Assembly: GCA_049840735.1 (NCBI GenBank)
Contig: JASGJN010000014.1
Location: 1-64,000, forward strand
DNA length: 64,000 nt
Direction: 5' to 3'
From: Anaeromyxobacter sp.
Lineage (GTDB): Bacteria > Myxococcota > Myxococcia > Myxococcales > Anaeromyxobacteraceae
Of the stretch, positions 19,167 to 63,351 are shown piece after piece. The notes under the pieces are model-generated. The model had not been told where the DNA came from, made no database searches, and saw only the letters and a program-made list of their open reading frames with translations. The position numbers were made by a program, and so were the translations under genes. How positions within the stretch are numbered: the first letter of the stretch is position 1; each line of letters begins with the position of its first letter.

Positions 19167-19243
19167 CGGGGCCCCGGCATGCCCCGCGCGCAGGGGACAC
19201 CGCCGCGCGGCGCCATGTGACCGGGTCCGTTACGTTGGGTGGA

Positions 19244-20711
19244 GTGGCCGCAGGCACCCCGACCATCCGCCTCGACCCGCACCCCGGGCGGCCCGTCTAC
19301 CTGCAGATTGCCCACGCGCTGATGGCCGAGATCCACCGCGGCCGCTTCCAGCCCGGGGACGCGCTCCCCGGGTACCGGACCCTGGCGGCCGAGCTGGGCG
19401 TCTCGCGCAACACCGTGCTCACCGCCTACCGCGAGCTGGCCGCGGAGGGCTGGATCCTGGCGGCCCAGGGCGAGGGCAGCACCGTGGCGCCGGCCCCGCC
19501 GACGCGCCTGCCCGGCCCGGCCACCCCCGAGCCGGCCGCGGCGCCCCGGCCCACCGCCGGCTTCGACCTGCGCCCCGGCACCACCCCCGGCCCCGCCGAC
19601 GCGGCCCGCAGCCTGCTGCGCGTCGCCACCGGGAACCCCGACCCCCGCCTGCTCCCGGGCGCCGCCCTGGCCCGCGCCTACCGCCGTGCGCTCACCGTCA
19701 ACCCGCGGGGCACGCTGGCGGTGGACGATCCCCAGGGCCACCCGGCCCTGCGCGAGGCGCTGGCCGCCCACCTGCGCGCGGGGCGCGGCGTGGCTGCGGC
19801 GCCCGGGCAGCTGGTCGTGACGCGCGGCGGCCAGCTCCCGCTGGCGCTGGTGGCCCAGGCCCTGCTCGCCCCGGGGGAGGCCGTGGCGGTGGAGGCGCTG
19901 GGCCCGCGCGACGCCTGGGACGCCATCGCCCGGGCCGGCGCGCGCTGCCTGGCCGTGCCGGTGGACGGCGACGGGCTCGACCTCGACGCGCTGGAGCGGC
20001 TGGCACAGGGCGAGCGGCTGCGGGCGGTGCTGGTCTCGCCGGTGCGCCAGTACCCCACCACCGCGACGCTGGCGCCGGCCCGGCGGGCGCGGCTGCTCTC
20101 GCTGGCGGCCCGCCTCCGCATCGCGGTGCTGGAGACCGACCACGACGCCGAGTTCCAGTACGACGGCGGCGCGCCGCTCCCCCTGGCCGCGGAGGACCGG
20201 GCCGGCGTGGTGATCCTGGTCGGCTCGCTCTCCAAGATCTTCAGCCCCGGGCTGCGCCTGGGCTACGTGCTGGCCCCGGCGGCGCTCGTCCCCGAGCTGC
20301 GCGCCGCGCGCGACGTCCTCGACCGCCACGGGGACCCGGTGCTGGAGCGGGCCATGGCCGAGCTGCTCGAGGAGGGCGAGATCGCCCGCCACCTGAACCG
20401 GATGCACCCCATCTACCGCCACCGGCGCGACGCGCTCTCGACCGCGCTGGCCCGCCACGCCGGCCACGCGCTCGCCTTCGCGCCGCCCACCGGCGGGCTG
20501 GCGCTCTGGGCGCGGGTGCGCGAGGGCGTGGACGTGGACGCCTGGACCCGCCGCGCGCTGGAGCGCGGCGTCTCCTTCCACGCCGGGCGGCAGTTCGCCT
20601 TCGACGGACGGCCCGTGCAGGCGCTGCGGATCGGCTTCTCCGGCCACGCCGAGGAGGAGCTGGCCGAGGTGGCGCGGCGCATGGGCGGAGACCGCCCCGG
20701 AGGTCGCGTGA
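19244..20711 (+). CDS. MocR/GabR family regulator (GntR wHTH plus PLP aminotransferase)
   Basis: LPGYRTLAAELGVSRNTVLTAY, SPVRQYPT, GSLSKIFSPGLRLGY; stop inferred after removing one G at about 20683-20685. Confidence 0.88.
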
Positions 20712-23700
20712 TGCAGCTGGAGCCGCTCGACCGCCGGCTGGAGCTGAGGGGGCTGCTCGGCGCCGGCGGCATGGGGCAGGTGCACCGGGCCTTCGACACC
20801 GTGCTGGAGCGGGCCGTGGCGGTGAAGTTCCTGCGCGGCGACGACCCGCGCGAGACCGAGCGGCTGGTGCTGGAGGCGCGCCTCCAGGCGCGGGTCGAGC
20901 ACGAGAACGTGGTGCGGGTGCTGGCGGTCGGGACCCACGGCGGCCGCCCCTGCATCGTGCTGCAGCTGGTGGAGGGCCGCACGCTGGCCGACCTGGCGCC
21001 CGCCCTGACGCTGGCCGAGAAGGTGGAGCTGGTCCGGCAGGCGGCGCTGGGGGTGGACGCGGCCCATCGCCAGGGGCTGGTGCACCGCGACGTGAAGCCC
21101 GGGAACGTGCTGGTGGAGGACGGCCCGGGCCCGCGGTCGGCGCGCCTGGGCGACTTCGGCCTGGCGCGCGGCGAGGAGGGCGGGCTCACCCGCACCGGCC
21201 TGCTGGCCGGCACCCTGCCCTTCATGGCCCCCGAGCAGCTCTCCGGGGCCGGCGTGGTGGACTTCCGGGCCGACGTCTACGGCCTGGGGGCGACGCTCTA
21301 CGCGCTGCTGGCCGGGCACCCTCCCTTCGGCGAGCCGCCCGGCGGCGCCGCGCCCGACGCGGCCAGCCTCCTGCGCCGCGTGCTGGACGATCACCCTCCG
21401 CCCCTGGGGCCCGGCGTGCCGCGCGAGCTGGCGCGCATCGCGGCCCACGCGCTGGAGAAGGAGGCCAGCGCGCGCTACGGCTCGGCGCTGGCGCTGGCCG
21501 AGGACCTGGCGCGCTTCCAGCGCGGCGAGCCCATCCTGGCGCGGCCGCCCTCGCGGCTGGAGCGCGCCATCAAGTGGGCGCGCCGGAACCCGGCCGCCGC
21601 CCGCGCGCTCCTGGCCGCGCTGGTCGCGGTGCTGGCCGGCGCCGGCTGGGCGGCGCTGGTCCAGCGGCGGGCCGGGCTGGAGGCGCTGGAGGCGGCGCGC
21701 CTGGGCGCGGAGGCCCAGCGGATGGAGAACGCGCTGCGCCTCGCCCACCTGCAGCCGGCGCATCGCCTCGCCCCCACCTACGCCGCCATCGCCCGCGCCG
21801 TGGAGGCGCTGCGGGCGGTCAGGGGCGGCGTGGGCGCCGCCCCGCGCGCCTTCGCCGTCGGCCGCGGCCTGCAGCTGCTCCGGCGGGAGGAGGAGGCCCG
21901 GGCCGCGCTGGAGGAGGGCTGGGCGCTGGGCTACCGGCCGCCGGAGGCGGCGCTGGCGCTGGGCGTGCTCGACGCCGAGCGCTACGCCCGCGAGCTGGCC
22001 CAGCTCCCGCGCATCGACGACGCCGCGCGGAAGGCCGCGCTGGTGGCCGGGCTGCGGGCCCGCTTCGGCGAGCCGGCGCTGGCGCGGCTGCGGCTGGTGC
22101 CGGCCGCGACCGCCGGCGACCGCGCCCTCCTGGACGCGCGCATCGCGCTGGTGGAGCGCCGCTGGGCCGAGGCGGCGGCCCGGGCGCGCCTCGCCGCCGG
22201 GGCCGGCGCCGACCCGCTCGACGCCGGCCTGCTCGAGGGCGAGGCCCTGCTCGGCCAGGGGCAGGAGGCTTTCGAGCGGCGCGACATCCCGGGCTCGCTG
22301 GCCGCCATGGAGGCCGCGACCTCGCCGCTCCGGCGCGCCGCCGGGATCGGCCGGAGCGCGCCCCGCCCGCGGCTGCTCCTGGCCCGCGCGCTCCAGGGGG
22401 TGGACACGGCGCGCGAGGAGCTGGAGTCGGGCGTGAAGAGCCGCTTCGAGGAGGCGCTGGCGGTGGCGCAGGAGGCGCTGGCGCTGGATCCGGACGACCC
22501 GGAGCTGCTCCTGGCCCGCTCCGAGATCCAGGCCGACGTGGGGCGCGTCGCGCGGCGCGTGGGGCGCGACCCCGGCCCGCCGCTGGCCGACGCGGTGCGG
22601 ATGGCCGACGCCGCCACGCGCGCCGCCCCGGGCAGCCGCCGCGCCTGGGACCGGCTGGCCTGGGCGTGCAGCAACTACGCGCGCGAGCTGCGCGACGTCG
22701 GCTACCAGGTGGACTGGGCGCTGGACAAGGGGATCGCCGCCGCCCGCCGGGGCCAGGCGCTGGAGCCCGGGTCGAGCGTTCCGCCCTCGCTGCTGTCGCA
22801 GCTCCACGCCGACCGCGCCGAGGCGGCCGCGGTCCGCAGGCAGGACGGGCGCGCCGACGTCGAGGCGGCCCTGGCCGCCGCCCGCCGCGTGGTCGAGATC
22901 GGCGATCGCCCGGTGGTCTCGCGCGTGCTGCTGGCCCAGGCGCTCCGGCAGGACGCCACCGCCCGCGCCGCGCGCGGCGAGCCCTCCAGCGCGCCGTTCG
23001 AGGAGGCCGGGCGGATCATGGCCGAGGCGCTGGCCATCTCGAAGGGGCAGACCGACCTGGCGGCGCACGGCGTGTACCTGGTCTCGCTCTGGGCCGAGGT
23101 GGAGCTGCTCGAGGGGCGCCCGCCGCGCCGGCCGGTCGAGGTGGGCGGCGCGTGGATCAGCGCCCTCCAGGCCAGGGCCGAGCGCGACGACGTCGCCGCC
23201 GGGCAGCTGGGCGAGCTGGACGTGATCCTGGCCGGAGGCGCGGTGCTGGAGGGGCGCGATCCATCGCCCGAGCTGGCCCGCGCCGTCCCGCGCCTGGACC
23301 GGACCATCCGCGCCGGGATCTTCCCGGCCATCCACGCGCGGCGCGGCGAGGCGGAGCTGGTCCGCGCCGCCTGGCTGGACCGGCGCGGCCAGGACCTTCG
23401 CCCGGCGCTGGCCGAGGCCCTCCGCCAGGCCGGGCTCATGAAGGCCGTCGAGCCCGCCTCGCCGGACGGCTGGCGGCTCGAGACCGAGGCCCTCCTGGCC
23501 GCGCCCTCCCCCACGCCCGCCGAGCTCCGGCGGGCGCGCGCGTCGATCGAGCGCGCGCTGCAGCTCACCCCCGCGGATCCGCGGCTGCACGCGCTCGACG
23601 GGCTGGTGCTGCTGGCCTCCGGCGACCGCGCCGGCGCCGGCGCCGCGCTCGCGAGGGCGGCGGCGGGCAATGGGCGGCTGGCGCGGGTGGCGGAGCTGCG

Positions 23701-23752
23701 GGAGCGGCTCAGCGCACCGCCCGCACCGCCAGCTCCTTCGCCGTCTCGATGA
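20711..23752 (+). CDS. Ser/Thr protein kinase with TM segment and TPR-like helical C-terminus
   Basis: LGAGGMGQV, VAVKF, HRDVKPGN, DFGLA, MAPEQ, DVYGLG; own GGAGG and ATG at 20711. Confidence 0.9.
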   Translation: MQLEPLDRRLELRGLLGAGGMGQVHRAFDTVLERAVAVKFLRGDDPRETERLVLEARLQARVEHENVVRVLAVGTHGGRPCIVLQLVEGRTLADLAPALTLAEKVELVRQAALGVDAAHRQGLVHRDVKPGNVLVEDGPGPRSARLGDFGLARGEEGGLTRTGLLAGTLPFMAPEQLSGAGVVDFRADVYGLGATLYALLAGHPPFGEPPGGAAPDAASLLRRVLDDHPPPLGPGVPRELARIAAHALEKEASARYGSALALAEDLARFQRGEPILARPPSRLERAIKWARRNPAAARALLAALVAVLAGAGWAALVQRRAGLEALEAARLGAEAQRMENALRLAHLQPAHRLAPTYAAIARAVEALRAVRGGVGAAPRAFAVGRGLQLLRREEEARAALEEGWALGYRPPEAALALGVLDAERYARELAQLPRIDDAARKAALVAGLRARFGEPALARLRLVPAATAGDRALLDARIALVERRWAEAAARARLAAGAGADPLDAGLLEGEALLGQGQEAFERRDIPGSLAAMEAATSPLRRAAGIGRSAPRPRLLLARALQGVDTAREELESGVKSRFEEALAVAQEALALDPDDPELLLARSEIQADVGRVARRVGRDPGPPLADAVRMADAATRAAPGSRRAWDRLAWACSNYARELRDVGYQVDWALDKGIAAARRGQALEPGSSVPPSLLSQLHADRAEAAAVRRQDGRADVEAALAAARRVVEIGDRPVVSRVLLAQALRQDATARAARGEPSSAPFEEAGRIMAEALAISKGQTDLAAHGVYLVSLWAEVELLEGRPPRRPVEVGGAWISALQARAERDDVAAGQLGELDVILAGGAVLEGRDPSPELARAVPRLDRTIRAGIFPAIHARRGEAELVRAAWLDRRGQDLRPALAEALRQAGLMKAVEPASPDGWRLETEALLAAPSPTPAELRRARASIERALQLTPADPRLHALDGLVLLASGDRAGAGAALARAAAGNGRLARVAELRERLSAPPAPPAPSPSR

Positions 23753-26877: not shown

Positions 26878-26988
26878 GCGCGCTCCCGCAGCGCAACTAT
26901 TTCTCCTAGTCCGTTTGCACCAAGAGGAAAGGTGCTCGCCCCAACCGGGCGTCTTGAGCGCCCGGTGTGCGCCTGCTCACCTGGTCAC

Positions 26989-27825
26989 ATGTTCCACGTG
27001 ACCTCGAACGCTGACGCTCCCGCCGAGCAGAGCCATCACTTGCCGTGCGACCTCCCATGGGGGAAACGCAGCCGCGCGCACTGGGCGCTGCAGGGAGACG
27101 GAAGCGTCATCCTGTTCGTCCATGGCTTCGGTGGAGCCTCGGAGACCACGTGGCACGCCTTCCCGGCCATGCTCCCGCGAGAGCCGAAGTGCCGTTCGAC
27201 GGACGTCGTCTTCTACGGCTACGACAGCCTCAGGTCCGGCGTGATCGCGCTGGCTACGAGGTTCCGCGAGTTCCTCCAGGTGGTCCTCGAGTCACCGAGC
27301 GACGCGATCAACCCGACCATCGACTTCGGACGGCGCCCGAAGGGCTTCCAGTACAAGAAGGTCATCGTCGTCGCACACTCGCTCGGCGCGGTCGTGGCGC
27401 GGCGCGCGCTGCTCGATCTGGCACAGCTGGATACGCCAGGCCTCGATCGCGTCCGCCTGGTGCTGTTTGCGCCAGCCCACCTGGGCGCCGACATCCTGCC
27501 GCTGGCCCGCGAGGCGCTGGGAGTCATCCGGTTGGTCCCGATCGCTGCCCTGGCCTCGTGGTCCTACCGCGCCTTGCGCGATCTCGACCCGAGGCCCTCG
27601 CCGGTGCTGCAGCAGCTCATGGCCGAAACGCAGAAGCTCACCGCAACCCCGCCGTCGCCCCACATAGCCCGCGTCGTCGTCCATGGGTACAAGGACCGCA
27701 TCGTCGCGCAGCAGCAGTTCTGCGCCGACCCGCTCGCGAAGTTCGAGCCGAAGAACCACGTGGCCCTCTGCAAGCCGGACGCCCACTACACCAACCCGAT
27801 CGACTACGTGATGGGAGCGCTGTGA
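26989..27825 (+). CDS. Alpha/beta hydrolase, SERAC1/PGAP1/SesB-like lipase
   Basis: ILFVHGFGG, VAHSLG (Ser), KDRIV (Asp), NHVALCKP (His). Confidence 0.85.
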   Translation: MFHVTSNADAPAEQSHHLPCDLPWGKRSRAHWALQGDGSVILFVHGFGGASETTWHAFPAMLPREPKCRSTDVVFYGYDSLRSGVIALATRFREFLQVVLESPSDAINPTIDFGRRPKGFQYKKVIVVAHSLGAVVARRALLDLAQLDTPGLDRVRLVLFAPAHLGADILPLAREALGVIRLVPIAALASWSYRALRDLDPRPSPVLQQLMAETQKLTATPPSPHIARVVVHGYKDRIVAQQQFCADPLAKFEPKNHVALCKPDAHYTNPIDYVMGAL

Positions 27826-28806
27826 TGGATGTCGCCCTCGCGAACCTCCGCGCCCTGGAACGCCGGTATCTGCACGGCTCGCTCGCCCCGGCCGCACTGT
27901 CGAAGGTGGCGGCGGCGCGGCGATCCCCTGGGTCGGTCGACCTCGACTTCCTCCTTCGCCACCACGATGACGAGGAGGTCGTGGACAAGACCGAGATCCG
28001 CCTCCGTGATGCCTTCGATGACCTGCTCGCGTTCTACGGGCTGATCGGAGATCGGCGCACAGCTCGGCGTCCTCCCGCCCAAGCTGCCGGACGATCTCGT
28101 CCGATCCGCCCGGGGGGTGCTGGAGACCCCCGGAGTCCATCGCTACTACACGCGGTACTATCCGCTCCTCCTGCCTGAGCTGCTGCGATGCCGGCTCGAG
28201 GGGAGCTGGAGCCGCCAGCTCCCGGTGGATGGCGCCGAGGCGCCTGTCCTGTTCGCCCGGTTCCTGGACGTCAACGCCATCCTGGATTCGCCCTCACAGT
28301 CCGACGAGATTGAGACGTTTCTCTGGCTGCTGGACGCCGGCTCGTGGGGCACGGTGGACATCACCGCCTTCCTCGAGTTGCTGCGGGATCCGGAGGAGAT
28401 GGTGAAGGCCCTCCAAACCCCTGCCAAGAAGGCGAGCCGCCTTGGGCTCGCCGTCCACGGCTTCCGCGAGTTCCTGGTCTTCTGCAGCGCCCTGGACGCG
28501 CTGCTCCAGTCCTGTCCGCCACAGGTCGCGGCGGCCTTCTGGCACCAGCACGCCTACTGGTTCAAGATCGTCCGGCAGAAAGTCGCGTCGACCATCGACC
28601 AGGCCCTTGCCGCGCTCTCGGGCTGGGAGCCTCCGGCAACCGGGCCGCGCAGCCGCTCGGCCTCCTCGCCGGCCCAGGAAGACGACCTGGCCACCCTGCA
28701 ATCCGCGCTGGACGCGCGGGAGTCCATGGAGCGGCTTCGCGAGGTCGTGCGGCGGCTCACAGGTGGCGCCTACGGCGCGTCACTGGGGCGCTCCAGGCAG
28801 CGTTGA
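27825..28806 (+). CDS. Uncharacterised helical protein, about 326 aa (frameshift at about 28046)
   Basis: TGATG overlap with the hydrolase; MDVALANLRALERRY...LAFYGLI joins EIGAQLGVLP...WHQHAYWF after removing one G. Confidence 0.75.
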
Positions 28807-28995: not shown

Positions 28996-29427
28996 ATGCG
29001 CGTGATGGTGATCGTGAAGGCCAGCATCGAATCCGAGGCCGGCCAGATGCCGAAGACGGAGCTGATGGCGGCCATGGGGCAGTACAACGAGGAGCTGGTC
29101 AGGGCGGGCGTGATGCTCGCCGGAGAGGGGCTGCACCCGACCTCGCGCGGGAAGCGCGTGCGCTTCTCCGGCCGCCAGCGGACCGTGATCGACGGCCCGT
29201 TCACCAGCACGCAGACCAGCGATCGCGTGGCGGGCTTCTGGCTCTGGCAGGTGCAGTCGATGGAGGACGCGGTCGACTGGCTCAAGCGGGCGCCGTTCGA
29301 CGACGGCGTGGAGGTCGAGCTGCGGCAGGTGTTCGAGGCCGACGACTTCGGCAAGGAGTACACGCCCGAGCTGCGCGAGCAGGAGGAGCGGATCCGGGCG
29401 GAGGTGGAGCGGCAGCAGCAGGCGTAG
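28996..29427 (+). CDS. YciI family protein
   Basis: MRVMVIVKAS, LAGEGLHP, VIDGPF, VAGFWLWQV. Confidence 0.92.
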   Translation: MRVMVIVKASIESEAGQMPKTELMAAMGQYNEELVRAGVMLAGEGLHPTSRGKRVRFSGRQRTVIDGPFTSTQTSDRVAGFWLWQVQSMEDAVDWLKRAPFDDGVEVELRQVFEADDFGKEYTPELREQEERIRAEVERQQQA

Positions 29428-29464: not shown

Positions 29465-32362
29465 TCAGGACGACAAGCGCCGGGGCGCCTCCCCTGCCGC
29501 GTCCGGGTCCGGCGAGGGCTCCGTGGCCGCCGGCGGCGCGTACTCCGCCCGCACCTGCGTCATCCACCGCGACAGGCCCTCCGCCGCCGGGCCGATCGCG
29601 TCGATGAGGTCCGGCAGCCCCAGGAGCTCGCCCAGCGGCACCCACCCGCCCTCCACCTGCAGCTCCAGCGCAGGGCAGAGCGCATAGGCGCCGCGCCGCA
29701 GTCGCTGGAAGAGGCGGCGGCAGCATGGGCCGCTGGAGCCGAGCTCGTTCTTGACCAGCAGCGAGGACAGGTATTCCCGGCGGCGCCGGTAGGGCGCGAG
29801 GACGCCGGGCGGGAGCTCGGCCACCCACCTGGCCAGCGTGGGCGCGTCGAAGACCGGCGCCAGGCCCTCCGCTGCGGCCTGGGCCAAGAGCCCCCTCGAC
29901 TTCACCAGCAGGAGCTGCAGCAGGAACCACTCCCCGGTGCTCGGGTCGAGCTTGGTCATGCGGTCGCCGAGCTTCACCTTGAGCGGCACGGCCGCGAGCT
30001 GCTCCCAGACCTGCTGGAAGGCGGCCGCCTTGACGCCGCGCTGCTCGAGGAAGCCCGCCAGCGCCACGCGCAGCGCGCTCCGGCCGGCGGTGTCGATGGC
30101 CTCCGGATCGGCGCCCAGCGCCAGCAGCTCGGCCACCAGGTCCGGCCGCCCCAGCCGCGCGGCGACCATCAGCGGGGTCTCGTTGAGCGGGTTGCGGAAG
30201 TCCACGCCGTGGGCGCGGAGCTGGTCCTGCAGGCGGGGCGAGCGGCGCTGCCGGTACTCGGCGTAGTGCGTGCCCTCGATGTACGCGCGCCCGGACTCCG
30301 CCTTGCGGGCGTGGCGGAAGCCGGCGGCCACCAGCCGCGGGAGCAGCGCCGGGACGTCGTAGGTGACCGCGAACTCGAACAGGAGCTGCTGCGCCGCCTT
30401 GTCCACCGGCCCCGGGCCGAGCGCGCGGGACCGCAGCCCGGCCAGGGAGGCCGGATTGGCCACGGCCCAGGGCACCGGCCGCACCTCGAGGATGTCGCGC
30501 CGGATGCGCTCCGCCTGCTCGGCCTTGCCCTGCAGCTCCAGCCGCCGGGCCTCCCGCTGCCACTCCTCGCGAGACGACTCCTCGGCCGCGAGCGCGACCG
30601 CCTCTCCCGCCTGCCCCACCGCCAGGAGCGCCAGGAGCGGGTGGGCCGGGTCCGCCTCGACCACCACCAGCGACTTCACGGCCCGCGTCATCGCGACGTA
30701 CAGCGCGTTCACGTAGAACTTGTAGGCGTCGAGGCTCTTGTCCGACTTGTCGCGCGCCCGGGCGTAGTCCAGCCCGCCCTCGAGCTCCGCCGCCTCGACC
30801 CCGGCGGCGCACTCGCGGTACTCCCGGGCCGCGCTGCCCACCAGGTTAAAGAGGACCACGTTGTCGTACTCCAGCCCCTTCGCCTCCTGGACCGCGAACA
30901 CCAGCGGCGTGGAGAACGCGGCCCGCGCCGCCGCCTTGTCCTCGTCCCGGAGCACCACCACCGCCGTCCGCGCCGAGCGGCGGGTGCGCGCCTCCAGCTC
31001 GCCGCGCACCCGCGGGCCGTCGGTCAGGAGCTCGACCCGCCCCTCCTCGCCGCTCACGCACTCGACCAGGTAGTTGCTCTCCCGATCCACCGAGCCGAAG
31101 CGGCGCTGCTTGATCAGCAGCAGCCGGTTGGCGAGCGCGGTCACGGCCCGGGTGTTCCGGTAGTTGGCGGAGAGGATGTGGATCCGGTCCAGCGGCGACG
31201 CGGCGCCCTCCCGCCCGCCGGGGCGGTGGAAGATGGACTTCACCCGCGCCCAGGAGAAGAGGTTGGGGTGGACGATTCGGTTGGCGTCGCCGCAGAGCAG
31301 GAAGGCCGACTTGTCCTTGAGCGTGGCCAGCGCCAGCCTGAGCTCGACCGGCGTGACGTCCTGCACCTCGTCGATGACCAGGAAGTCGTAGCGCTCCGCC
31401 GCCAGCGCGCGCCGCTCCCAGGCGGCCACGTTGGCGTCGAACAGGCCGCGCTCGCGCAGGTGAGCCAGCCAGCGCTCGAAGAGCCGGTACACCGTCCGCC
31501 GCTCCTCCCCGAGGAAGATGGACTGCCTGATCCCCAGCGCCAGGTACTCGGCCTCCGAGAGGTGCGGCCCCTTCTCGGCCGAGCCGGTGAGCACCCCGGT
31601 CACCTCCTCGAAGATCCGGTGCGGCTCCCGCAGCTTGAACGTCCCCTGGTGACGGCTGAACCAGGCGGCGAAGTCCGGCCAGCGCGCCTCGCGTCCCGAG
31701 GGCACCTGGATGGTCTCGACCAGCTCGGAGAGCGAGAGGAAGTCCACCTCCTGGCCGTCGTTCGCGTAGCGGTGCGCGTAGTAGAGCGAGCGCGCGTTCT
31801 CGACCAGGAAGGAGGAGCGGGTCAGGTAGAGCCCGTGCCCGGGGAGGGTCTTGAGCTTCTCCAGGGTGAGCGCCGTCTTGCCGGAGCCGGCCGAGCCGAT
31901 CACGATGAGCGGGAGCGGCGTGCCGAAGACGGCCGACTGCGCGTCGTCGAAGGAGAGCGGCTTGTCGAGCAGGTGGAAGACGCTCGAGGTCGGGTGGAGG
32001 TACGCGAGCCGCTCCCGCTCAAGGCCGTCCCACGCCTCCGCGGTCGCCCTCCCCGCCGCCGGCTCGAAGTCCTCCTCCCGCACCTCGCCGCCGCCCAGGA
32101 ACCGCGAGCGCGCGTAGTCGTGGTTGTGCACCACCTCGAGGATCAGCAGCGCCCGGCGCCCCTCGTGCTGGCCGAACTTGAAGAGCAGCCGGTTCCGCTC
32201 GTCCAGCCGGGCCCGATAGAGCCCGGTCCCCTTCAGCTTGCGGGCGTCCGCGGCGCGGAAGTCACCGGCGCGCAGCTGCTCCACCGCCTGGTCCACGTGG
32301 CGGCCGAGCTGCCGGACGTCGAGCTCGCGGTTGAGGAGGACGTGGATGGGCTGGTCGAACAC
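29465..32362 (-). CDS. RelE-like / UvrD-like SF1 helicase / ankyrin repeat fusion protein
   Basis: GSAGSGKT, IDEVQD, ANYRN, EAKGLEYD, LYVAMTRA; ankyrin ETPLMVAARLGRPDLVAELLALGAD; N-terminal KLKGTGLYRARLDERNRLLF...HDY. Confidence 0.85.
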   Translation of the reverse strand: MFDQPIHVLLNRELDVRQLGRHVDQAVEQLRAGDFRAADARKLKGTGLYRARLDERNRLLFKFGQHEGRRALLILEVVHNHDYARSRFLGGGEVREEDFEPAAGRATAEAWDGLERERLAYLHPTSSVFHLLDKPLSFDDAQSAVFGTPLPLIVIGSAGSGKTALTLEKLKTLPGHGLYLTRSSFLVENARSLYYAHRYANDGQEVDFLSLSELVETIQVPSGREARWPDFAAWFSRHQGTFKLREPHRIFEEVTGVLTGSAEKGPHLSEAEYLALGIRQSIFLGEERRTVYRLFERWLAHLRERGLFDANVAAWERRALAAERYDFLVIDEVQDVTPVELRLALATLKDKSAFLLCGDANRIVHPNLFSWARVKSIFHRPGGREGAASPLDRIHILSANYRNTRAVTALANRLLLIKQRRFGSVDRESNYLVECVSGEEGRVELLTDGPRVRGELEARTRRSARTAVVVLRDEDKAAARAAFSTPLVFAVQEAKGLEYDNVVLFNLVGSAAREYRECAAGVEAAELEGGLDYARARDKSDKSLDAYKFYVNALYVAMTRAVKSLVVVEADPAHPLLALLAVGQAGEAVALAAEESSREEWQREARRLELQGKAEQAERIRRDILEVRPVPWAVANPASLAGLRSRALGPGPVDKAAQQLLFEFAVTYDVPALLPRLVAAGFRHARKAESGRAYIEGTHYAEYRQRRSPRLQDQLRAHGVDFRNPLNETPLMVAARLGRPDLVAELLALGADPEAIDTAGRSALRVALAGFLEQRGVKAAAFQQVWEQLAAVPLKVKLGDRMTKLDPSTGEWFLLQLLLVKSRGLLAQAAAEGLAPVFDAPTLARWVAELPPGVLAPYRRRREYLSSLLVKNELGSSGPCCRRLFQRLRRGAYALCPALELQVEGGWVPLGELLGLPDLIDAIGPAAEGLSRWMTQVRAEYAPPAATEPSPDPDAAGEAPRRLSS

Positions 32363-32578: not shown

Positions 32579-33469
32579 ATGCCGCGGATGAAGGCCTCCG
32601 ACTTCCACCCCGAGGTGCTGAGCCTCTTCGATCGGTATGTCCACGGGCTGATCGACCGCCGCGCCTTCCTGGCCGGGGCGGCGAGGTTCGCGGTGGGCGC
32701 CATGACCGCCAGCGCGCTCCTCGACGCGCTCAGCCCGCGGTTCGCCGAGGCGCAGCAGGTGGCCAGGGACGACCCGCGGCTCCAGGCCGGCACGGTCGAG
32801 CTCGACTCGCCCCGCGGCTCGGGGAAGCTGCGCGGCTACCTGGCGCGGCCCGCCAAGGCGCAGGGCAAGCTCCCCGGCGTGCTGGTCATCCACGAGAACC
32901 GCGGCCTCAACCCCCACATCGAGGACATCGCCCGCCGCGTCGCGCTGGAGGGCTACCTGGCCTTCGCGCCCGACGCGCTCACCCCGCTGGGCGGCTATCC
33001 GGGCGACGAGGACAAGGCGCGGGAGCTGTTCGCGAAGCTCGACCAGGAGAAGACCCGCGAGGACTTCCTGGCCGCGCTCGCCTTCCTGGAGAAGCGCCCG
33101 GAGTGCACCGGCAAGGTGGGCGCGGTGGGGTTCTGCTGGGGCGGGGGGATGGTGAACTTCCTCGCCACCCGCGCGCCGGAGCTGGCCGCGGGCGTGCCCT
33201 TCTACGGCGGCCAGCCTCCGCCGGAGGAGGTCGCGAGGATCAAGGCCCCGCTCCTCATCCAGTACGCGGAGAAGGACGACCGCATCAACGCCGGCATCCC
33301 CGCCTTCGAGCAGGCGCTCGAGGCGAGCCACGTGCGCTACCAGCTGTTCGTCTATCCGGGCACGCAGCACGGCTTCAACAACGACACCACGCCTCGCTAC
33401 GACCAGGCCGCCGCCGACCTGGCCTGGAAGCGGACCCTGGCGTTCCTGGGGAAGCACCTGCGCGGCTGA
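32579..33469 (+). CDS. Dienelactone hydrolase family protein (YghX-like)
   Basis: IDRRAFL, IHENRGLNPHIED, GFCWGG, HGFNNDTTPRY. Confidence 0.92.
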   Translation: MPRMKASDFHPEVLSLFDRYVHGLIDRRAFLAGAARFAVGAMTASALLDALSPRFAEAQQVARDDPRLQAGTVELDSPRGSGKLRGYLARPAKAQGKLPGVLVIHENRGLNPHIEDIARRVALEGYLAFAPDALTPLGGYPGDEDKARELFAKLDQEKTREDFLAALAFLEKRPECTGKVGAVGFCWGGGMVNFLATRAPELAAGVPFYGGQPPPEEVARIKAPLLIQYAEKDDRINAGIPAFEQALEASHVRYQLFVYPGTQHGFNNDTTPRYDQAAADLAWKRTLAFLGKHLRG

Positions 33470-35949: not shown

Positions 35950-36432
35950 TCAGCCCGGCACCACGCGGTAGAACGCCCCCAGGACGGCGCCGAAGACGAC
36001 GTGCGCCAGGAGCGTGGTGAGGGGCGTCTGCGCGCCGTAGTTGAGGGCCAGGAACCCCGGCGGCTCGAGCTGGCGGGTGACGTCCGGGCCGCGCTCCTCG
36101 CTCGCCATGCGCGGGTGCAGGCCGGGCAGGAGCCGCATCCCCGCGGTCAGGACGAAGGCGGCGTGCACCGTCCCGATGGCCGCGCCGAGCCAGGGGGAGG
36201 CCCGCCCCCAGGCCTCGAAGGCGGCGACGTAGAGGAGCGAGAACAGCCAGCCGTTCAGCAGGTGGGCGGCGAACCCGACCAGCTTGGCGCGGTCCCGGCT
36301 GGGCGTGAACAGCGTCCCGAGCATGTAGGGCAGGCTCATGCGCGTGAGCCGGAGCCCCTGCCCCGCCGCCAGGGTGGTGGTGAGGGCCACCGTCGCCACG
36401 AAGCCCCACAAGAGCCAGCTCCCCACGCTCAT
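35950..36432 (-). CDS. Hypothetical membrane protein
   Basis: Four hydrophobic helices; ATGA overlap with the GH15 gene. Confidence 0.75.
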   Translation of the reverse strand: MSVGSWLLWGFVATVALTTTLAAGQGLRLTRMSLPYMLGTLFTPSRDRAKLVGFAAHLLNGWLFSLLYVAAFEAWGRASPWLGAAIGTVHAAFVLTAGMRLLPGLHPRMASEERGPDVTRQLEPPGFLALNYGAQTPLTTLLAHVVFGAVLGAFYRVVPG

Positions 36433-38325
36433 CTGGCCTCCTCCCGCGGCGCCGGCACCGCCCGCCGCGCCGTCCCCGCGCCGGGCGGCTCGCGGCGGAG
36501 CCGCTGCTCGAGCGAGAGGGCCGCGTTGATGAGCCCCACGTGCGTGAAGGCCTGCGGGAAGTTCCCGACCGCCTCGCCCGTCTCCGGGTCGATCTCCTCG
36601 GCGAACAGCCCCACGTCGTTCGCGAAGCCGCACAGCCGCTCGAAGGTGGCCTGCGCCTCGGCCGCGCTCCCGCCCCCCAGCGCCAGGGCCTCTGCGCCCC
36701 AGAAGCTGCAGATCCCGAACGCGCCTTCGCCCGGCGACTCGTCCCCGCGGTAGCGGAACAGGAGGCCGTCGCGAGCGCCGAGCTGGGCCCGGATCCGCGC
36801 CAGCGTGGCCCGCATCCTGGCCGAGCCCGCCTCCTCGAAGCCGTACCAAGGCAGGAGCAGCAGCGCCGCGTCCAGCTCCGCGCCGCCGAGCCGCGAGGCG
36901 TAGCTCCCCAGGGCCGCGTTCCACCCCTGGGCCTCGACCTCGCCGCGGATGGCGGTCCGGTTCCGCTGGAAGTGCTCGACCGGCGCGCCGCGGAGGTGAC
37001 CCCGGGCGTGGAGCTCGAGGAGCCGGTCCAGGGCGGCCCAGCAGAGCACCCGCGAGTGCGTGTGGTGGGCCGCGCCGGAGCGGGGCTCCCAGAATCCCCT
37101 CGTCCGGCTGCCGCCAGGTCCGGCACACGTGCTCCCCGACCCTGCACAGCATCCGCTCCGTCTCGCGATCCAGCGTCCCGCCGCCGCGGACGAAGTGCGC
37201 CACCGCGTCGATCACCTCGCCGTAGACGTCCAGCTGCAGCTGGCCGGCGGCCCCGTTGCCGGTGCGCACCGGGCGCGACCCGCGGTGGCCGGAGAGGTGG
37301 TCCAGCGTGCGCTCGGGCGCCGGCGGGTTGCCGTGGACGTCGTAGAGCACCCGCAGCTCCGGCTGGGTGAGCCGGGTCGAGTGGAGGAGCCAGCTCACGA
37401 ACGCGTCCGCCTCCTCGTCGAAGCCCAGCCCGGCGAGCGCGCGGAAGGTGAGCGAGGCGTCGCGCAGCCAGCAGTACCGGTAGTCCCAGTTCAGCCCGCC
37501 GCCCACCCGCTCCGGGAGCGAGGTGGTGGGCGCGGCGATGACCGCGCCGGAGGGCGCGTGGACCAGGAGCCGCAGCGCGAGCGCGCTCCTCACCACCGCG
37601 CCACGGGCCGGCCCGCCGTAGCGGATCCGCGCCGCCCAGCGGCTCCACCAGCGCAGGGTCCGCTCCAGGGCCTCCGGCGCGGCCGCGAGCGGCGCCAGGA
37701 CGGCCGGCCACTCGCTCGCGAAGGTGAGCGCGAAGGAGCAGGTCTCTCCGGCGCGCAGCCTGAGCCTTCCCTCGGCGCGTCCCTCGCCTTCCAGCCGGAG
37801 GGGGAGCCCGGCGCGGAGCGTGAGCAGCCCGGCGCGGGTCTCGACGCGCAAACCCAGGCCTCGCGCCTCGACCAGGCGGGGCCGCTCCCGCCCGTAGTCC
37901 GGCCTCGGCTCGAAGACCGCCTCCAGCTCGACCTCGCCGCGCTCGCAGCGCGCCAGCCGGAGGAGGGCGTGCTCCGGCTCCAGCAGGCGACGCCGCTCCG
38001 CCTCGGAGGCCACCGGCATGAAGTCGGTGACCGAGAGGGCGCCGGCGTCCGTCTCGAACCGCGTCTCGAGCACGTTGGTGTCCCCGAGGTAGCGCTGCCG
38101 CGGGCGGGACGGCGCCGCCGGCGCGACCGTGAAGCGGCCGGCGCCGTCGTCGAGCAGGGCGCCGAACAGGCTCGGGCTGTCGAACCGCGGCCAGCACAGC
38201 CAGTCGATGGCGCCGCCGAGCGAGACCAGCGCGGCCGAGCGGCCGTCGCCGATGATCGCGTGATCGTGGACCCGCTCCACCCGAACCCCCTGCGGCCCGG
38301 CGCGCGTCGCCGTGCCCTCCTTCAT
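36429..38325 (-). CDS. Glycoside hydrolase family 15 (trehalase/glucoamylase-like; frameshift at about 37095)
   Basis: IIGDGRSAAL, APTTSLPE, NWDYRYCWLRD, QLDVYGE, GNFPQAFTH. Confidence 0.92.
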
Positions 38326-39253: not shown

Positions 39254-39676
39254 TCACCCCGCCGGCGAGCGCTGCACGTCGCACTCGCCATCGACATACA
39301 GCCAGCGCCCGCCCACCTTCCGGAAGCGCGACCGCTCGCGGAGCGTGTAGCGGTACCGGGAGTCCCGGGACCGGGCCGTGAACTCCACCACGCCCTGGTC
39401 GTCGCCCGGGCCGCCCGCCTCGGTCCGGTGGACGGTGAGGCCGAGCCAGGTCACCGAGCGCGCGGCGGCCTCGATCGCCTGCCGCTCCGCCGCGGTGGCC
39501 GGCGCGTCGTGGGTGGAGAGGAGGTAGTCGGGGAGGCAGCGGGCGAAGGCCGAGTAGCGCGAGCGCATGAGCGCCTCGGCCGTCTCGGCTGGCCGCGAGC
39601 CATCATGGCGCGGGCCGCAGCAGGCGACGTAGCGTGCGCCGCCGCAGGGGCAGGGTTCGTCGGTGGGCGGAGCCAT
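39254..39676 (-). CDS. YchJ family (SEC-C) protein
   Basis: CPCGG..Y..CC, AEALMRSRYSAF, ERSRF..W.YVDG. Confidence 0.92.
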   Translation of the reverse strand: MAPPTDEPCPCGGARYVACCGPRHDGSRPAETAEALMRSRYSAFARCLPDYLLSTHDAPATAAERQAIEAAARSVTWLGLTVHRTEAGGPGDDQGVVEFTARSRDSRYRYTLRERSRFRKVGGRWLYVDGECDVQRSPAG

Positions 39677-39713
39677 GCGGGGAGGAGGATACCGCCTCCC
39701 CGTTCGGCGCACA

Positions 39714-41627
39714 TCAGCCTCCCCTGCGGAGCCAGACCTGGAGCTGCCCCGGCGCGCGGTTCGCCCAGGCGAAGTAGGGGATGGCCTGGAGCTGGACGGG
39801 CCGCGGCGGCGCCGCAGCGGTCGCACCCACGGTCCGGTAGAGCCGGTCGCTCCAGCTCGCCCCGGGCTCGGCCACCGCGCCCGCGCCCTGCAGCGCGACC
39901 ACGCCGCCCAGCAGCTCCGGCCGCCACCCGGGCGCCGGGAGGGACCGCGGATCGACCGCGAGGTCGCGCAGGTCCACGCCGGGGTGGTCGAGCCCCTCGA
40001 CGCAGTACAGCAGCGGGCCGCGGGCCAGCGCGACGCGGCCGGCGTCCTCGAGCGCGTGCGGGTGCGCCTCGATCAGCCGGACGGGCATGGGGAGCTCCAG
40101 CTCCACGCGATCCCCGGGCGTCCAGCTGCGGTGGATCACGGCGTAGGTGCCGGGGACCGGCTGCGCCTCCGGTTGGCCGTTCACGGTGAGCCGGGCTCCG
40201 GCCTCGCACCAGCCCGGGATGCGCAGGTGGAGCGCGAACGTCCCGGCCCCTCGCACCTCCACCGAGATGCGCCCGTCCCAGGGATAGGCGGTGCGCTGCA
40301 CCAGCGTCACCGGGGCACCGCCCGCCTGGAGCCGGACCTCGCTGGCGGCGTACTGGTGGACCAGCACGGCGCCGTCGTCCCGGGTGCCGTAGAGGTAGCC
40401 GGGGAGCGCGGTGAGCGTGCGGGCCACGTTGGGCGGGCAGCAGGCGCAGGTGTACCAGGGCTTCCGCTGGTGCGAGCCGTCCGCCTGGAGCGGGTTCACG
40501 TAGAAGTAGCGCAGGCCGTCGAGCGACCAGCCCGGCAGGACGCCGTTCAGGAGCGTCCACTCCAGCAGGTCGGCGTGGCGCGCCTCGCCGGTCGCCGCGA
40601 GCATGCGCTGGTTCCACATCACGCTGGCGATGGCGGCGCAGGTCTCGGTGTAGGCCCGCGCGTTCGGCAGCTCGTGGTCGTCGCCCAGCGACTCGCCCTC
40701 GTGACGCGAGCCGGCGCCGCCCGACACGTAGAGCTGGCGGGAGACCAGCTGCTCCCAGAGCCGGGTGAGCGCGTCGCGCAGCGAGGCGTCGCCGGTCTCG
40801 AGGTGGAGATCCGTCACCCCGCAGCAGTAGTACAGCGCCCGCACCGCGTGCCCGGCCAGCCGCGGCAGCTCCCGGAACGGGAGGTGGTCCTGGTAGTACT
40901 CGCGCCCGTAGCGGCCGCCGTCGAGGAGCCCGTGGCCGCGCGCCTCCAGGAAGTGCCGAGCCAGGCGCAGCCAGCGCGGGTCGCCGGTCTCGCGGGTGAG
41001 CTCGACCAGCGCCAGCTCCACCTCCTGGTGTCCGTCGATGCCGCTCCGCCGGATCGCGCCCTCCGGCGCGAACTGGGCCCAGATGTGCTCGGCCCAGCGC
41101 ACGGCCACGGCCAGGAGCCGCCCGTCGCCGGTGGCGCGGTGGTGCGCGATGGCCGCCTGGACCAGGTGGCCGCCGCAGTAGAGCTCGTGCATGTCGCGCA
41201 GGTCCGACCAGCGCTGGCCGGCCCGATCCCCGGCGTAGAAGGTGTCCAGGTAGCCGTCCGGCTCCTGCGCCCGCTCCACCAGCGCGATGGTCTCCCCGAC
41301 CAGCCGCTCCAGCGCGGGATCGCGCCGCGCCGCCAGGGCCCAGGCGGCGGCCTCCAGCCACTTGTAGACGTCGCTGTCGTCGAAGAACAGCCCGCTGCGC
41401 GGCGTGTCCAGCTGACCGGCCGCCCTGCGGAAGCCGTCGAGCCGCCCGTGCCGCTCCAGCTCGCCGTGCAGCGCGGGGAGGGACACCTCCACCGCCAGCC
41501 GGTAGCGCTCCCCCCAGGGCCCCGGATCGAGCCGGACGGCGTTCACCGGGACCGGACGCACCCGGGCGTAGGGGCTCCTCGAGGTGTCCACGACGGGGCG
41601 TCCAGGCGCCGATTCACGCATCGTCAT
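39714..41627 (-). CDS. GH127 beta-L-arabinofuranosidase family protein
   Basis: DSDVYKWLEA, HELYCGGH, GHAVR, YTETCA, CACCPPN. Confidence 0.92.
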   Translation of the reverse strand: MTMRESAPGRPVVDTSRSPYARVRPVPVNAVRLDPGPWGERYRLAVEVSLPALHGELERHGRLDGFRRAAGQLDTPRSGLFFDDSDVYKWLEAAAWALAARRDPALERLVGETIALVERAQEPDGYLDTFYAGDRAGQRWSDLRDMHELYCGGHLVQAAIAHHRATGDGRLLAVAVRWAEHIWAQFAPEGAIRRSGIDGHQEVELALVELTRETGDPRWLRLARHFLEARGHGLLDGGRYGREYYQDHLPFRELPRLAGHAVRALYYCCGVTDLHLETGDASLRDALTRLWEQLVSRQLYVSGGAGSRHEGESLGDDHELPNARAYTETCAAIASVMWNQRMLAATGEARHADLLEWTLLNGVLPGWSLDGLRYFYVNPLQADGSHQRKPWYTCACCPPNVARTLTALPGYLYGTRDDGAVLVHQYAASEVRLQAGGAPVTLVQRTAYPWDGRISVEVRGAGTFALHLRIPGWCEAGARLTVNGQPEAQPVPGTYAVIHRSWTPGDRVELELPMPVRLIEAHPHALEDAGRVALARGPLLYCVEGLDHPGVDLRDLAVDPRSLPAPGWRPELLGGVVALQGAGAVAEPGASWSDRLYRTVGATAAAPPRPVQLQAIPYFAWANRAPGQLQVWLRRGG

Positions 41628-55101: not shown

Positions 55102-57803
55102 ATGAGCGACGGCAACCTCACGCTGGGCCTGACTCCCCACGGCCACGTCGTGACCACGGTCGACGACGACGTCTCCGCGCTCGAACCTTCGCGTGCGCAG
55201 CGCATCGAGCGCTCCTTCGCGCGCGGGCCAGGCCACGGGCTCCTCCACCTCGGGGCCGCCGAGGTTGGGACCTTCCTGCCGCCGGTCCTCGGCTACTGGC
55301 GAGACTTCGCCACCCGCTTCGTGTCTGCCCTGTGCACGAGCCAGGCCGCGGATGACCCTGACGTGCTGCTGGTTCCGCGACCGCCGCCCACCGAGGTGCT
55401 CGAGGAGCTCGCGACCGCGGCTCCGCCGATGTCCGGAGCCGAGTACCTCGACGCGGAGGTCCTGACGACGCTCTGGACCGACCTGGGCGAGGCCTTCGCC
55501 GAGGAGCACCGTGCCTCGCGGGCCACGCTCCAGGCGTTCCTGACGAGCCTCAACCCTGCCTGGAACCTCGTCGGGCGCGTCCACTTCAACCTCGCCGAGA
55601 ACCGCCGCGACGAGGAGGCGCCCTTCGCCTTCCTGGCGACCTACACCAGCAAGCTGTCGGCCCACGGCAAGGCGCAGCACCTCCCCCTCGGCGAGGCCCT
55701 GCGAGAGTACGCCGGCGCAGCCGACAGGCCGCGCCTGCTCTCGCTGCTCGTGCCCGTGCAGCGCGCCGCAGAGCGCTGCGGCTGGCTCCGGGAGATGGTG
55801 GACGCTGGCGAGGTCTTCCATCCGCTCCGCTGGTCGCCGAAGGAGGCCTGCCGGCTCCTGGGCGACGCGCCGGAGCTGGAGGCGGCCGGCGTGGTGGTGC
55901 GGATGCCGGCGAGCTGGCGTTCCGGTCGCCCTGCCCGCCCGCTGGTGACCGCGACCGTCGGCGCCGCTGCGCCCCCCCAGCTCGGCAAGGACGCGCTGTT
56001 GGATTTCCGCGTGAGCCTGACGCTCGACGGAGAGGCGCTGAGCCCTGCGGAGGCGAAGGCGCTCCTGGCGACCACCAGCGGCCTGGCCCTCATCCGTGGC
56101 CGGTGGGTCGAGGTCGACCGCGGGCGGATCTCCCGGACGATGCAGCGCCTCCAGGAGGTCCAGGCGCTGGCAGACGAGCGCGGAATCACCTTCGCCGAGG
56201 CGATGCGCGCGCTCGCGGGGGCCGACGTCACGGGCGAGGGCACGGGGTCGAGCCCGGACGTGCAGTGGTCGCAGATCGTGGCCGGCCCGTGGCTCGCCGA
56301 CGTGCTGAAGGGCTTGCGCTCACCGGAGGGGCTCGCACAGGTGACGCCCGGGCGTGAGCTTCGCGGCACGCTCCGCCCCTACCAGGAGGTCGGCCTTCGA
56401 TGGCTGCACCTCCTCACCAGCCTGGGGCTCGGCGCATGCCTTGCCGACGACATGGGGCTCGGCAAGACCATCCAGGTGTTGTCGCTCCTGCTCGTGAGAC
56501 GGGCTGCCCGCACGAAGCACCTCCCCAGCTTGCTGGTGGCGCCGGCCTCCCTCCTCGCCAACTGGATGGGAGAGATCGAGCGGTTCGCGCCGGGGCTCAG
56601 GGCGGTGGTCGCCCATCCCTCGGCCATGCCGGCCAGCGAGCTCGCGGCCATGGACGCGCGGAGGCTCTCGGCGACGGACCTCGTCATCACCAGCTACGGC
56701 TCGCTGCTCCGGCTACCGTGGACCGCCTCCACCGCCTGGGACCTCGTGATCCTCGACGAGGCCCAGGCCATCAAGAACCCCGGCGCCAAGCAGACCCGGG
56801 CGGCCAAGAAGCTCTCCGCCCGGAGCCGGATCGCGCTCACCGGGACCCCCATCGAGAACCGGCTGGGCGATCTCTGGTCCATCTTCGACTTCACGAACCC
56901 CGGGCTCCTCGGCTCGGCGAAGGAGTTCACCGCCTACGCGAAGCGCCTCGCGGCCGCGGAGGGCACGGCCTATGGACCGCTGCGAAAGCTCGTCCGGCCG
57001 TACGTCCTGCGGCGGCTCAAGACCGACAAGGCCGTCATCTCCGATCTGCCGGGGAAGACGGAGGTGAAGGCCTTCTGCCCGCTCAGCCGCAAGCAGGCGG
57101 CGCTCTACCAGCAGGCCGTCGAGGAGCTAGGCCGGGAGCTCGAGCGCACGGACGGGATCCGGCGCCGCGGGGTCGTCCTCGCGAGCCTCACGCGCCTCAA
57201 GCAGATCTGCAACCACCCTTCCCAGTGGCTCGGCGACGGCGCCTGGGCCGAGGACGACAGCGGGAAGTGGGCCCGGCTGCGGGAGATCGCCGAGGTGCTC
57301 GCCTCCCGGCAGGAGAAGGCGCTGGTCTTCACCCAGTTCCGCGAGGTGGTCGGTCCGCTCTCCGCATTCCTCGGCGGCGTCTTCGGCCGGCCGGGGCTGA
57401 TGCTCCACGGCCAGACCGAGGTGAAGGAGCGAAGGGAGCTGGTGCGGCGGTTCCAGGAGGACGAGTCGGTCCCTTCTTCGTGCTGTCGCTCAAGGCGGGC
57501 GGCTCGGGGCTCAACCTCACCGCCGCCTCGCACGTGGTGCACTTCGACCGATGGTGGAACCCGGCGGTCGAGGACCAGGCGAGCGACCGCGCCTTCCGCA
57601 TCGGCCAGCGGCGGAACGTGCTCGTCCACAAGCTCGTCTGCAAGGGGACCGTGGAGGAGCGCATCGACGCGCTCATCGAATCGAAGAAGCGGCTGACGCG
57701 GGATCTGCTAGAAGGGGGCGCGGAGCTGAACCTGACCGAGCTGGAGGACGAGGAGCTGCTCCGCCTCGTCGCCCTCGACCTGGGCGCGGCCCTGAAGGAG
57801 TGA
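55102..57803 (+). CDS. SNF2 family helicase (frameshift at about 57470)
   Basis: [56 protein letters not shown]. Confidence 0.93.

Positions 57804-60333: not shown

Positions 60334-63351
<3,018 letters not shown>

Follow-up and report, generated by a model that had tools for sequence, protein, structure and literature searches.

The window analyzed here, a 64,000-nucleotide stretch of DNA from Anaeromyxobacter sp. (assembly GCA_049840735.1, contig JASGJN010000014.1, positions 1–64,000), encodes on its minus strand a 965-amino acid protein that joins a predicted RelE-type toxin domain to a superfamily 1 (SF1) helicase core and to ankyrin repeats. The open reading frame (ORF) is genuine. The gene, its parts and the two genes that flank it are located as follows.

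29465..32362, minus strand: whole gene, a stand-alone RelE-helicase-ankyrin fusion of 965 amino acids with a GTG start
32093..32347, minus strand: RelE/YoeB-fold domain, residues 6–90 (predicted fold; near-invariant K42, R50, R58, E76, H81 and Y83)
31958..32092, minus strand: linker, residues 91–135 (lowest conservation in the protein; two short strands ahead of the Q motif)
30593..31957, minus strand: SF1 helicase core, residues 136–590, Rep/UvrD/HelD-like (Pfam, fold match and motifs)
31874..31897, minus strand: Walker A motif GSAGSGKT, residues 156–163 (K162 in 265/265 members)
31277..31279, minus strand: codon 362 in motif III, CGA (Arg), Gln in the family (codon and family comparison)
30218..30592, minus strand: helical region, residues 591–715 (predicted structure)
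29993..30217, minus strand: about two ankyrin repeats with flanking helices, residues 716–790 (Pfam)
29618..29992, minus strand: C-terminal domain, residues 791–915 (winged-helix-like predicted secondary structure; conserved R859, R887 and Y893)
28996..29427, plus strand: convergent YCII-family gene, downstream and outside the unit
32579..33469, plus strand: divergent YghX/dienelactone hydrolase gene, upstream and outside the unit

A first-pass annotation of the window had described a self-contained gene with no adjacent antitoxin, and both points hold. The flanks are the YCII gene and the YghX hydrolase gene, the latter across a 216-bp gap, and neither the window ORFs nor Pfam provided an antitoxin candidate beside the gene. 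We found no recurring partner gene for the family either: the neighbor families that recur are generic and reach 6 of 81 loci at most.

Domain architecture of the fusion protein

An AlphaFold2 model of the 965-residue chain, computed with a 101-sequence alignment, has a predicted local distance difference test score (pLDDT) of 89.6 and a predicted template modeling score (pTM) of 0.89. At this whole-chain pTM, the prediction is of domains packed into a single unit. Folded alone, the N-terminal domain reaches a pLDDT of 94.5. A Foldseek search with this model returned YoeB, RelE, YafQ, HigB, Cami1 and ParE structures, with YoeB/ParE entry 6n90 as top match (E 8.7e-4). In the VIA search, 23 of the 24 top rows are RelE/ParE-type toxins or Cami1, as judged by title, and the remaining row is Txp40. 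The best match is YoeB entry 7v6w (Z 9.3, r.m.s.d. 2.6, 76 residues aligned), all seven rows with Z of at least 8 are RelE/ParE-type or Cami1, and the earliest unrelated row has a Z of 5.3. YoeB, RelE, YafQ and HigB head this list, and the ParE rows below them trail by no more than ∼2 Z units. The predicted structure confirms for the N terminus a RelE/YoeB (BECR-type) fold, in line with the RelE/ParE-like pattern noticed in the first-pass annotation.

Sequence evidence for this assignment is weak. Pfam detects ParE_like, with 0.0012 as the lowest E value, in 17 of 72 members and YoeB in 2; an Atlas search returned a RelE cluster at 0.90; and hhalign gave 0.2–0.4% against 28 RelE/ParE proteins from relatives of the source genome, rising to 3–5% against a hand-picked 11-member RelE/ParE subset. 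A hidden Markov model of the domain ranked RelE-type proteins in five of the six top places among 222 sequences (best E 0.006), which a reversed control failed to do. Searches of the PDB by sequence with profiles of the N- and C-terminal domains yielded only chance-level matches.

The domain is strongly constrained. Among 268 distinct members, counted where aligned, K42 and R58 are found in 263/263, H81 and Y83 in 264/264, R50 in 262/263 and E76 in 261/263 sequences; among 88 representatives at <50% identity each of the six residues is kept in 82–87. The ratio of nonsynonymous to synonymous substitution rates (dN/dS) of the domain is 0.07–0.21 in eight pairs. The first-pass annotation had pointed to RelE-site residues, and the putative ones are near-invariant. 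Judged by pattern, these six residues may occupy the catalytic positions of RelE/YoeB; basic, His and Tyr residues would then sit at places comparable with those of RelE/YoeB-type toxins, with which the domain shares its predicted fold. We infer that the N-terminal domain is an active RNase. In the available text of a 2025 survey of multidomain RelE toxins (PMC11980606), ParE toxins are described as having no such basic and His/Tyr residues.

The helicase core carries the SF1 motifs Q, I, Ia and II–VI and two RecA-like domains throughout the family. Beyond the Walker A motif, we located DEVQD at residues 331–335, motif III at 358–371, motif IV at 399–403, motif V at 492–499 and motif VI at 553–561, and Pfam families PF01443, PF13538, PF13245 and PF00580 match this region. 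K162, D331, E332, Q362 and R560 are found in 82/82 representatives. Structure searches with the whole model, which covered residues 13–590, returned Rep as best helicase match (Z 24.3, r.m.s.d. 3.9, 395 residues aligned), followed by HelD (Z 20.9 and 19.4) and PcrA (Z 20.3); Upf1 scores lower (Z 14.2). Motifs, Pfam families and the fold match to Rep thus bear out the UvrD-type motif set that had been read from the sequence. The NCBIfam HelD model scores 13.9 bits against a cut-off of 419. Rep/UvrD, PcrA, HelD and the defense helicase GajB have the SF1 fold and motifs in common with our protein at 12–18% identity, but the span between motifs IV and V is short in our protein. Rep and UvrD place a large 2B subdomain between these motifs; with a spacing of only ∼90 residues, subdomain 2B appears to be missing or small in the 965-residue protein.

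In motif III the first-pass annotation had read GDANR and suspected an error. CGA is indeed present at codon 362, and the suspicion is supported by the family: residue 362 is Gln in 268/268 other members, encoded in the 81 loci by CAG (69) or CAA (12). If R362 were real, the helicase of the window copy would be impaired and the allele decaying. The uniform Gln in all other members speaks for such a defect, and private changes at otherwise invariant columns do occur (at least one in 15 of 81 homologues). We nevertheless regard a decaying allele as doubtful. R362 is the sole departure of the window copy among 182 columns conserved at ≥95%, the change from CAG to CGA exchanges two neighboring bases and yields a codon that encodes 2 of 103 arginines, and dN/dS between the window copy and its relatives is 0.14–0.21 outside the C-terminal domain. 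Moreover, 6 of 51 tested genes of the assembly contain frame changes (5 if one internal repeat is left aside). Codon 362 is probably an assembly error.

Downstream of the helical region, PF00023 (residues 728–757) and PF12796 (residues 718–768) match the roughly two ankyrin repeats noted previously. The winged helix that had been proposed for the C terminus fits the predicted secondary structure, in which helices 840–847 and 862–871 precede a hairpin at 885–895, and R859, R887 and Y893 are nearly invariant; it finds, however, no family or structure match. No Pfam family reaches more than 2 of 64 members, an Atlas search gave no usable match, hhalign against a low-diversity HARE-HTH set gave 0.05%, and matches from a short-protein search look like fragments of the same family. 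In Myxococcota pairs the C-terminal domain is the fastest-evolving part of the protein (dN/dS 0.33–0.49). Of 16 representatives picked for length or divergence, 10 lack its motif but retain the RelE and helicase motifs. Among 13 scanned, five carry long ankyrin arrays instead, two a second ankyrin block and one a DUF1186 domain plus a SEC-C motif.

In a subfamily of about 1400 residues (P0076, P0091, P0361 and L064), the C-terminal domain is followed by DUF1186 and a SEC-C motif. YchJ-like and pRiA4-ORF3 genes adjoin homologues in three loci (L045, L036 and L065), and the window itself contains a YchJ-like gene at 39257–39826. One homologue lies in a 1788-residue open frame (L055:5625–10988), in which ∼790 residues ahead of the RelE domain have no Pfam match at 1e-8, either a fusion or a read-through.

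A widespread, mobile family that includes Shigella Orf182

In GTDB, at least 592 loci encode a relative (592 of 599 matched stretches), and the best 120 of 3141 matches share at least 44% identity, mostly over their full length. The family is sparse close to the source genome: among 40 relatives the only family members are in G028 (80% identity) and, as a broken copy, in genome G011, which amounts to 1 of 24 genomes in the genus. The latter copy (G011:C2; L083/L086/L088/L089), the sole other one in the genus, is broken into several frames in an assembly that is 56% complete, and is far more distant (31–46%) than L002, L003 and L082. In a FastTree phylogeny of 80 rows the window copy groups with Anaeromyxobacteraceae with 100% support.

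Of 72,556 plasmid records, 134 carry the family, 101 of them from Shigella. In Escherichia coli it occurs in 117 of 5426 genomes, with 123 of 133 places chromosomal. These 117 genomes are not independent, since many of the matches have an identical 89.2% identity. The E. coli copies reside in AlpA/YagK-type islands, where the gene is present or absent between identical flanks as a one-gene insert, and two of five inspected chromosomal copies are pseudogenes. An intact homologue on the E. coli EC958 chromosome (L160, 1177644–1180493) lies in an island with Ag43 and an afa/dra adhesin operon. Viruses contribute a single family locus. The family is widespread, patchy, accessory and mobile, as the genus counts, the Shigella plasmids and the E. 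coli counts indicate.

The homologue on the Shigella virulence plasmid (SF_p0234 on pCP301; WP_164925050 on pSD1_197) shares 41% identity with our protein across 92% of the query length. The orf182 primers of PMC5658099 match the gene of this homologue at its two ends, in the first and last codons, and the GC content of 50.8% compares with 50.9% given there for orf182; by primers and composition, it is Orf182. The names 'orf186' and 'orf185', considered for this homologue, were dropped: orf186 is an rfbU-like gene, and the primers point to orf182. Orf182 retains all key RelE and helicase residues, and its gene is located upstream of ospG, in divergent orientation to shf-rfbU-virK-msbB2. According to the available text of PMC5658099, Orf182 was seen by mass spectrometry, and an Orf182-bla fusion, expressed well in Shigella, served as a control that is not secreted. 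That text notes the ankyrin domain as the one feature of Orf182 and assigns it neither a RelE or helicase domain nor a function. The available text of PMC4267944 reports deletions of all Shigella plasmid genes dispensable for maintenance.

Proposed mechanism, competing explanations and known systems

We propose, with a probability of about one half, that the 965-residue protein is a translation toxin which silences itself until a trigger activates it, and which likely defends the cell against phage or other DNA that invades it. At rest the protein would be silent, with its RelE domain restrained in cis. A trigger bound by the variable C-terminal tail, or nucleic acid bound by the motor, would then be relayed by ATP turnover in the helicase and free the RelE domain, which would cut mRNA on ribosomes, halt translation and arrest the cell. 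The tail is read as the sensor mainly because a fixed RelE and helicase core is combined with an exchangeable repeat tail, and the tolerance of whole Orf182 in Shigella fits silencing in cis. What the data show directly is the anatomy, conservation, distribution, tail variation and missing partner gene of the family and its identity with Orf182; the folds are predictions, and nuclease activity, silencing, a sensing tail and defense are proposals.

A defensive role is suggested by the setting of some homologues. One (L049) is inserted in a type III-B CRISPR-Cas locus, flanked by RAMP genes on one side and csx16-card1 on the other, with cmr5 and cas1 close by, and is a candidate ancillary effector. 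Restriction-modification (RM) genes adjoin homologues in four loci (L019, L065, L074 and L082), and a Piscirickettsia plasmid island combines a homologue with DruA, MazEF, RelE/ParE and SIR2 genes. The settings of L049, L065 and L074 and of the Piscirickettsia island are plainly defensive; most others are not. To put numbers on this linkage we scanned 226 of 237 first and second neighbors, omitting 11 that are nearly identical to, or fragments of, the gene itself, and 113 of 115 fifth and sixth neighbors as control, with classes assigned by hand from Pfam matches. Toxin-antitoxin, RM, abortive infection (Abi) or CRISPR genes account for 23/226 near neighbors, spread over 17/76 loci; the corresponding figures for distal genes are 8/113 and 4/44. 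The baseline consists of distal genes, which can share the same island, rather than of a genome-wide set, and kin loci are not independent.

Several observations weigh against this role. The linkage is modest (Fisher p 0.43 for genes and 0.082 for loci, near versus distal), and one omitted distal type III RM subunit would weaken the contrast further (control 9/114 genes and 5/44 loci). Most loci have housekeeping neighbors. Other occupants of the E. coli slot, in seven strains, are Dnd in one, CDI-type secretion in two, and metabolic, resistance or insertion sequence (IS) cargo in four; we thus rejected the slot as a defense-specific hotspot. PADLOC returned no whole-protein match for the 965-residue protein and, together with Pfam, no other recognized defense gene in the window. 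The local defense hotspot that the first-pass annotation had envisaged near a lipase cassette also failed in composition: G+C at third codon positions (GC3) is 0.979 in our gene, which is host-like, and 0.872–0.874 in the cassette. The phylogeny mostly follows phylum, requiring 16 changes where 11 is the minimum and shuffling gives 37, and identity across phyla is ∼40%, which suits an old accessory housekeeping factor. Finally, the strain that tolerated Orf182 had the whole plasmid and the protein bore a C-terminal tag, and a distant antitoxin or an inactive fusion may also explain the tolerance. Of the two functions first suggested, abortive infection remains plausible with a linkage that is not significant against distal genes, and the phylum-level tree keeps RNA or ribosome surveillance open.

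Such surveillance could take the form of accessory quality control, in which the helicase engages a stalled ribosome, RNA polymerase or an RNA:DNA hybrid and the tethered RelE domain cuts the trapped mRNA with no toxicity to the cell. The vertical signal in the tree, the host-like GC3, the mostly non-defense neighbors and the well tolerated expression of Orf182 would all be expected of such a factor, as would a single compact predicted unit (pTM 0.89), and HelD ranks second in the fold search. We still consider it unlikely. A quality-control factor sits poorly with a distribution as patchy as 1/24 same-genus genomes and 117/5426 E. coli genomes, with carriage on islands and plasmids and pseudogenes among the E. 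coli chromosomal copies (2/5 inspected), or with ankyrin-rich tails that can be swapped, and a translation-gene neighbor never recurs in the 81 loci.

The protein might instead act away from the ribosome, with the motor feeding single-stranded RNA or DNA to the N-terminal domain, or with that domain attacking gyrase as ParE does. MRNase-type toxins head the fold list, though, and the invariant basic and His/Tyr residues suit an RNase site and are not found in ParE toxins, at least in the available text of PMC11980606; we regard this as quite improbable, even though DNA helicases are the nearest structural matches of the helicase core, Pfam leans only toward ParE_like for the N-terminal domain (17/72) and the winged-helix-like tail suggests nucleic-acid binding. 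Slighter still are the chances of an addiction module, a one-gene toxin that harms cells which lose or damage the mobile element carrying it. Presence in 101 Shigella plasmid records, close to yacA and ccdAB, would suit such a module, and toxin-antitoxin pairs are the commonest defense-type neighbors. An antitoxin gene is lacking, however, and the E. coli places are mostly chromosomal (123 of 133); most GTDB loci have no mobility genes among the scanned neighbors, and only one locus is viral.

Several known systems share features with the proposed self-silenced toxin. Type II toxin-antitoxin systems have a cognate antitoxin next door, whereas none lies in the window and no neighbor is conserved in 81 loci; and where RelE/YoeB-type toxins pair with an antitoxin gene, here 870 residues of helicase and sensor-like domains are attached. 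In the CRISPR effector Cami1, a CARF-RelE protein, a RelE domain is restrained within a larger protein until a signal arrives, and its structure (8phb) matches our N-terminal domain with a Z of 7.3. The CARF domain is absent from the 965-residue protein (no match at E 0.1, and the model regions have other folds), the switch would be an SF1 helicase, and a CRISPR link is seen in only 1 of 76 loci. Defense proteins of the STAND/NLR-like type combine an effector, an NTPase and a variable repeat tail; our protein has the same domain order, but its NTPase is an SF1 helicase rather than a STAND module. With GajB there are short motif matches only (best E 4.8e-7), no GajA partner was seen and no neighbor is conserved. 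Anantharaman and Aravind reportedly described, in 2003, Z5902-type fusions of an N-terminal RelE domain and an SF1 helicase with no ankyrin tail. The first-pass annotation likened the helicase and ankyrin combination to animal TRANK1, in which a UvrD-like helicase goes with TPR and ankyrin repeats; any kinship between the two would be conjectural.

RelE-helicase fusions appear in two predicted defense systems. A preprint (10.64898/2026.09.30.754977) places a RelE-fused helicase in Tiamat type I-K neighborhoods, and CnuH of the CoCoNuT systems carries a RelE-like domain fused to a helicase (PMC11090510). As described in the available text of both sources, these helicases belong to multi-gene systems, unlike the stand-alone gene studied here. 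The Tiamat ATPase and methyltransferase have no recurring counterpart among our loci. CnuH is Upf1-like, with an internal RelE-like domain in the available text, and sits in a McrBC-type operon; the core of our protein is nearer to Rep (Z 24.3) than to Upf1 (Z 14.2), and no operon is conserved. The word 'ankyrin' is absent from the main texts of the Tiamat preprint and the CnuH paper. Likewise, the main text of PMC11980606 contains no 'helicase', 'UvrD' or 'ankyrin', and proteins without an antitoxin were, in its available text, set aside. The available texts of PMC3710099 and PMC7355660 do not describe the family. Our literature searches found no description of the four-domain family, with subscription papers and supplements thinly covered, so a prior mention is possible.

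With our analysis, a predicted RNase domain and an intact helicase can be attributed to a large, unannotated family that includes Orf182, which is conserved on the Shigella virulence plasmid. If the defensive reading is true, a RelE toxin that lacks an antitoxin and has interchangeable sensor tails would be turned on and off by a helicase. One may tentatively go further and see a class of one-gene, NLR-like immune receptors in about a dozen phyla, with a RelE mRNase effector, a UvrD-type helicase switch and a variable ankyrin sensor, which as Orf182 would guard cells bearing the Shigella plasmid. If quality control is the true function, the family would represent an unrecognized bacterial helicase-plus-endonuclease surveillance factor.

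Other features of the window

The distance to the lipase cassette, given as about 650 bp in the first-pass annotation, is 659 bp, but the YCII gene sits in that gap. At 26932–28806 (plus strand), an alpha/beta hydrolase gene precedes an unannotated ORF region, which seems to be split across frames. This pair has no PADLOC match, and its GC3 of 0.87, compared with ∼0.97 in most window genes, suggests a recent two-gene acquisition. At 19217–23752 (plus strand), a GntR-aminotransferase regulator and a Ser/Thr kinase share one ORF of 1500 residues, probably by loss of a stop codon in an error-prone assembly. A GH15 glucoamylase-like gene at 35950–38325 (minus strand) is fragmented over frames, and an IS66 transposase fragment (61906–62199, minus strand) lies in a lower-GC3 stretch at the window end. 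An SNF2 helicase with DUF3670 (55102–57782, plus strand) has a frame change close to its end, and its family also adjoins homologues of the RelE-helicase gene in three loci (L032, L043 and L048).

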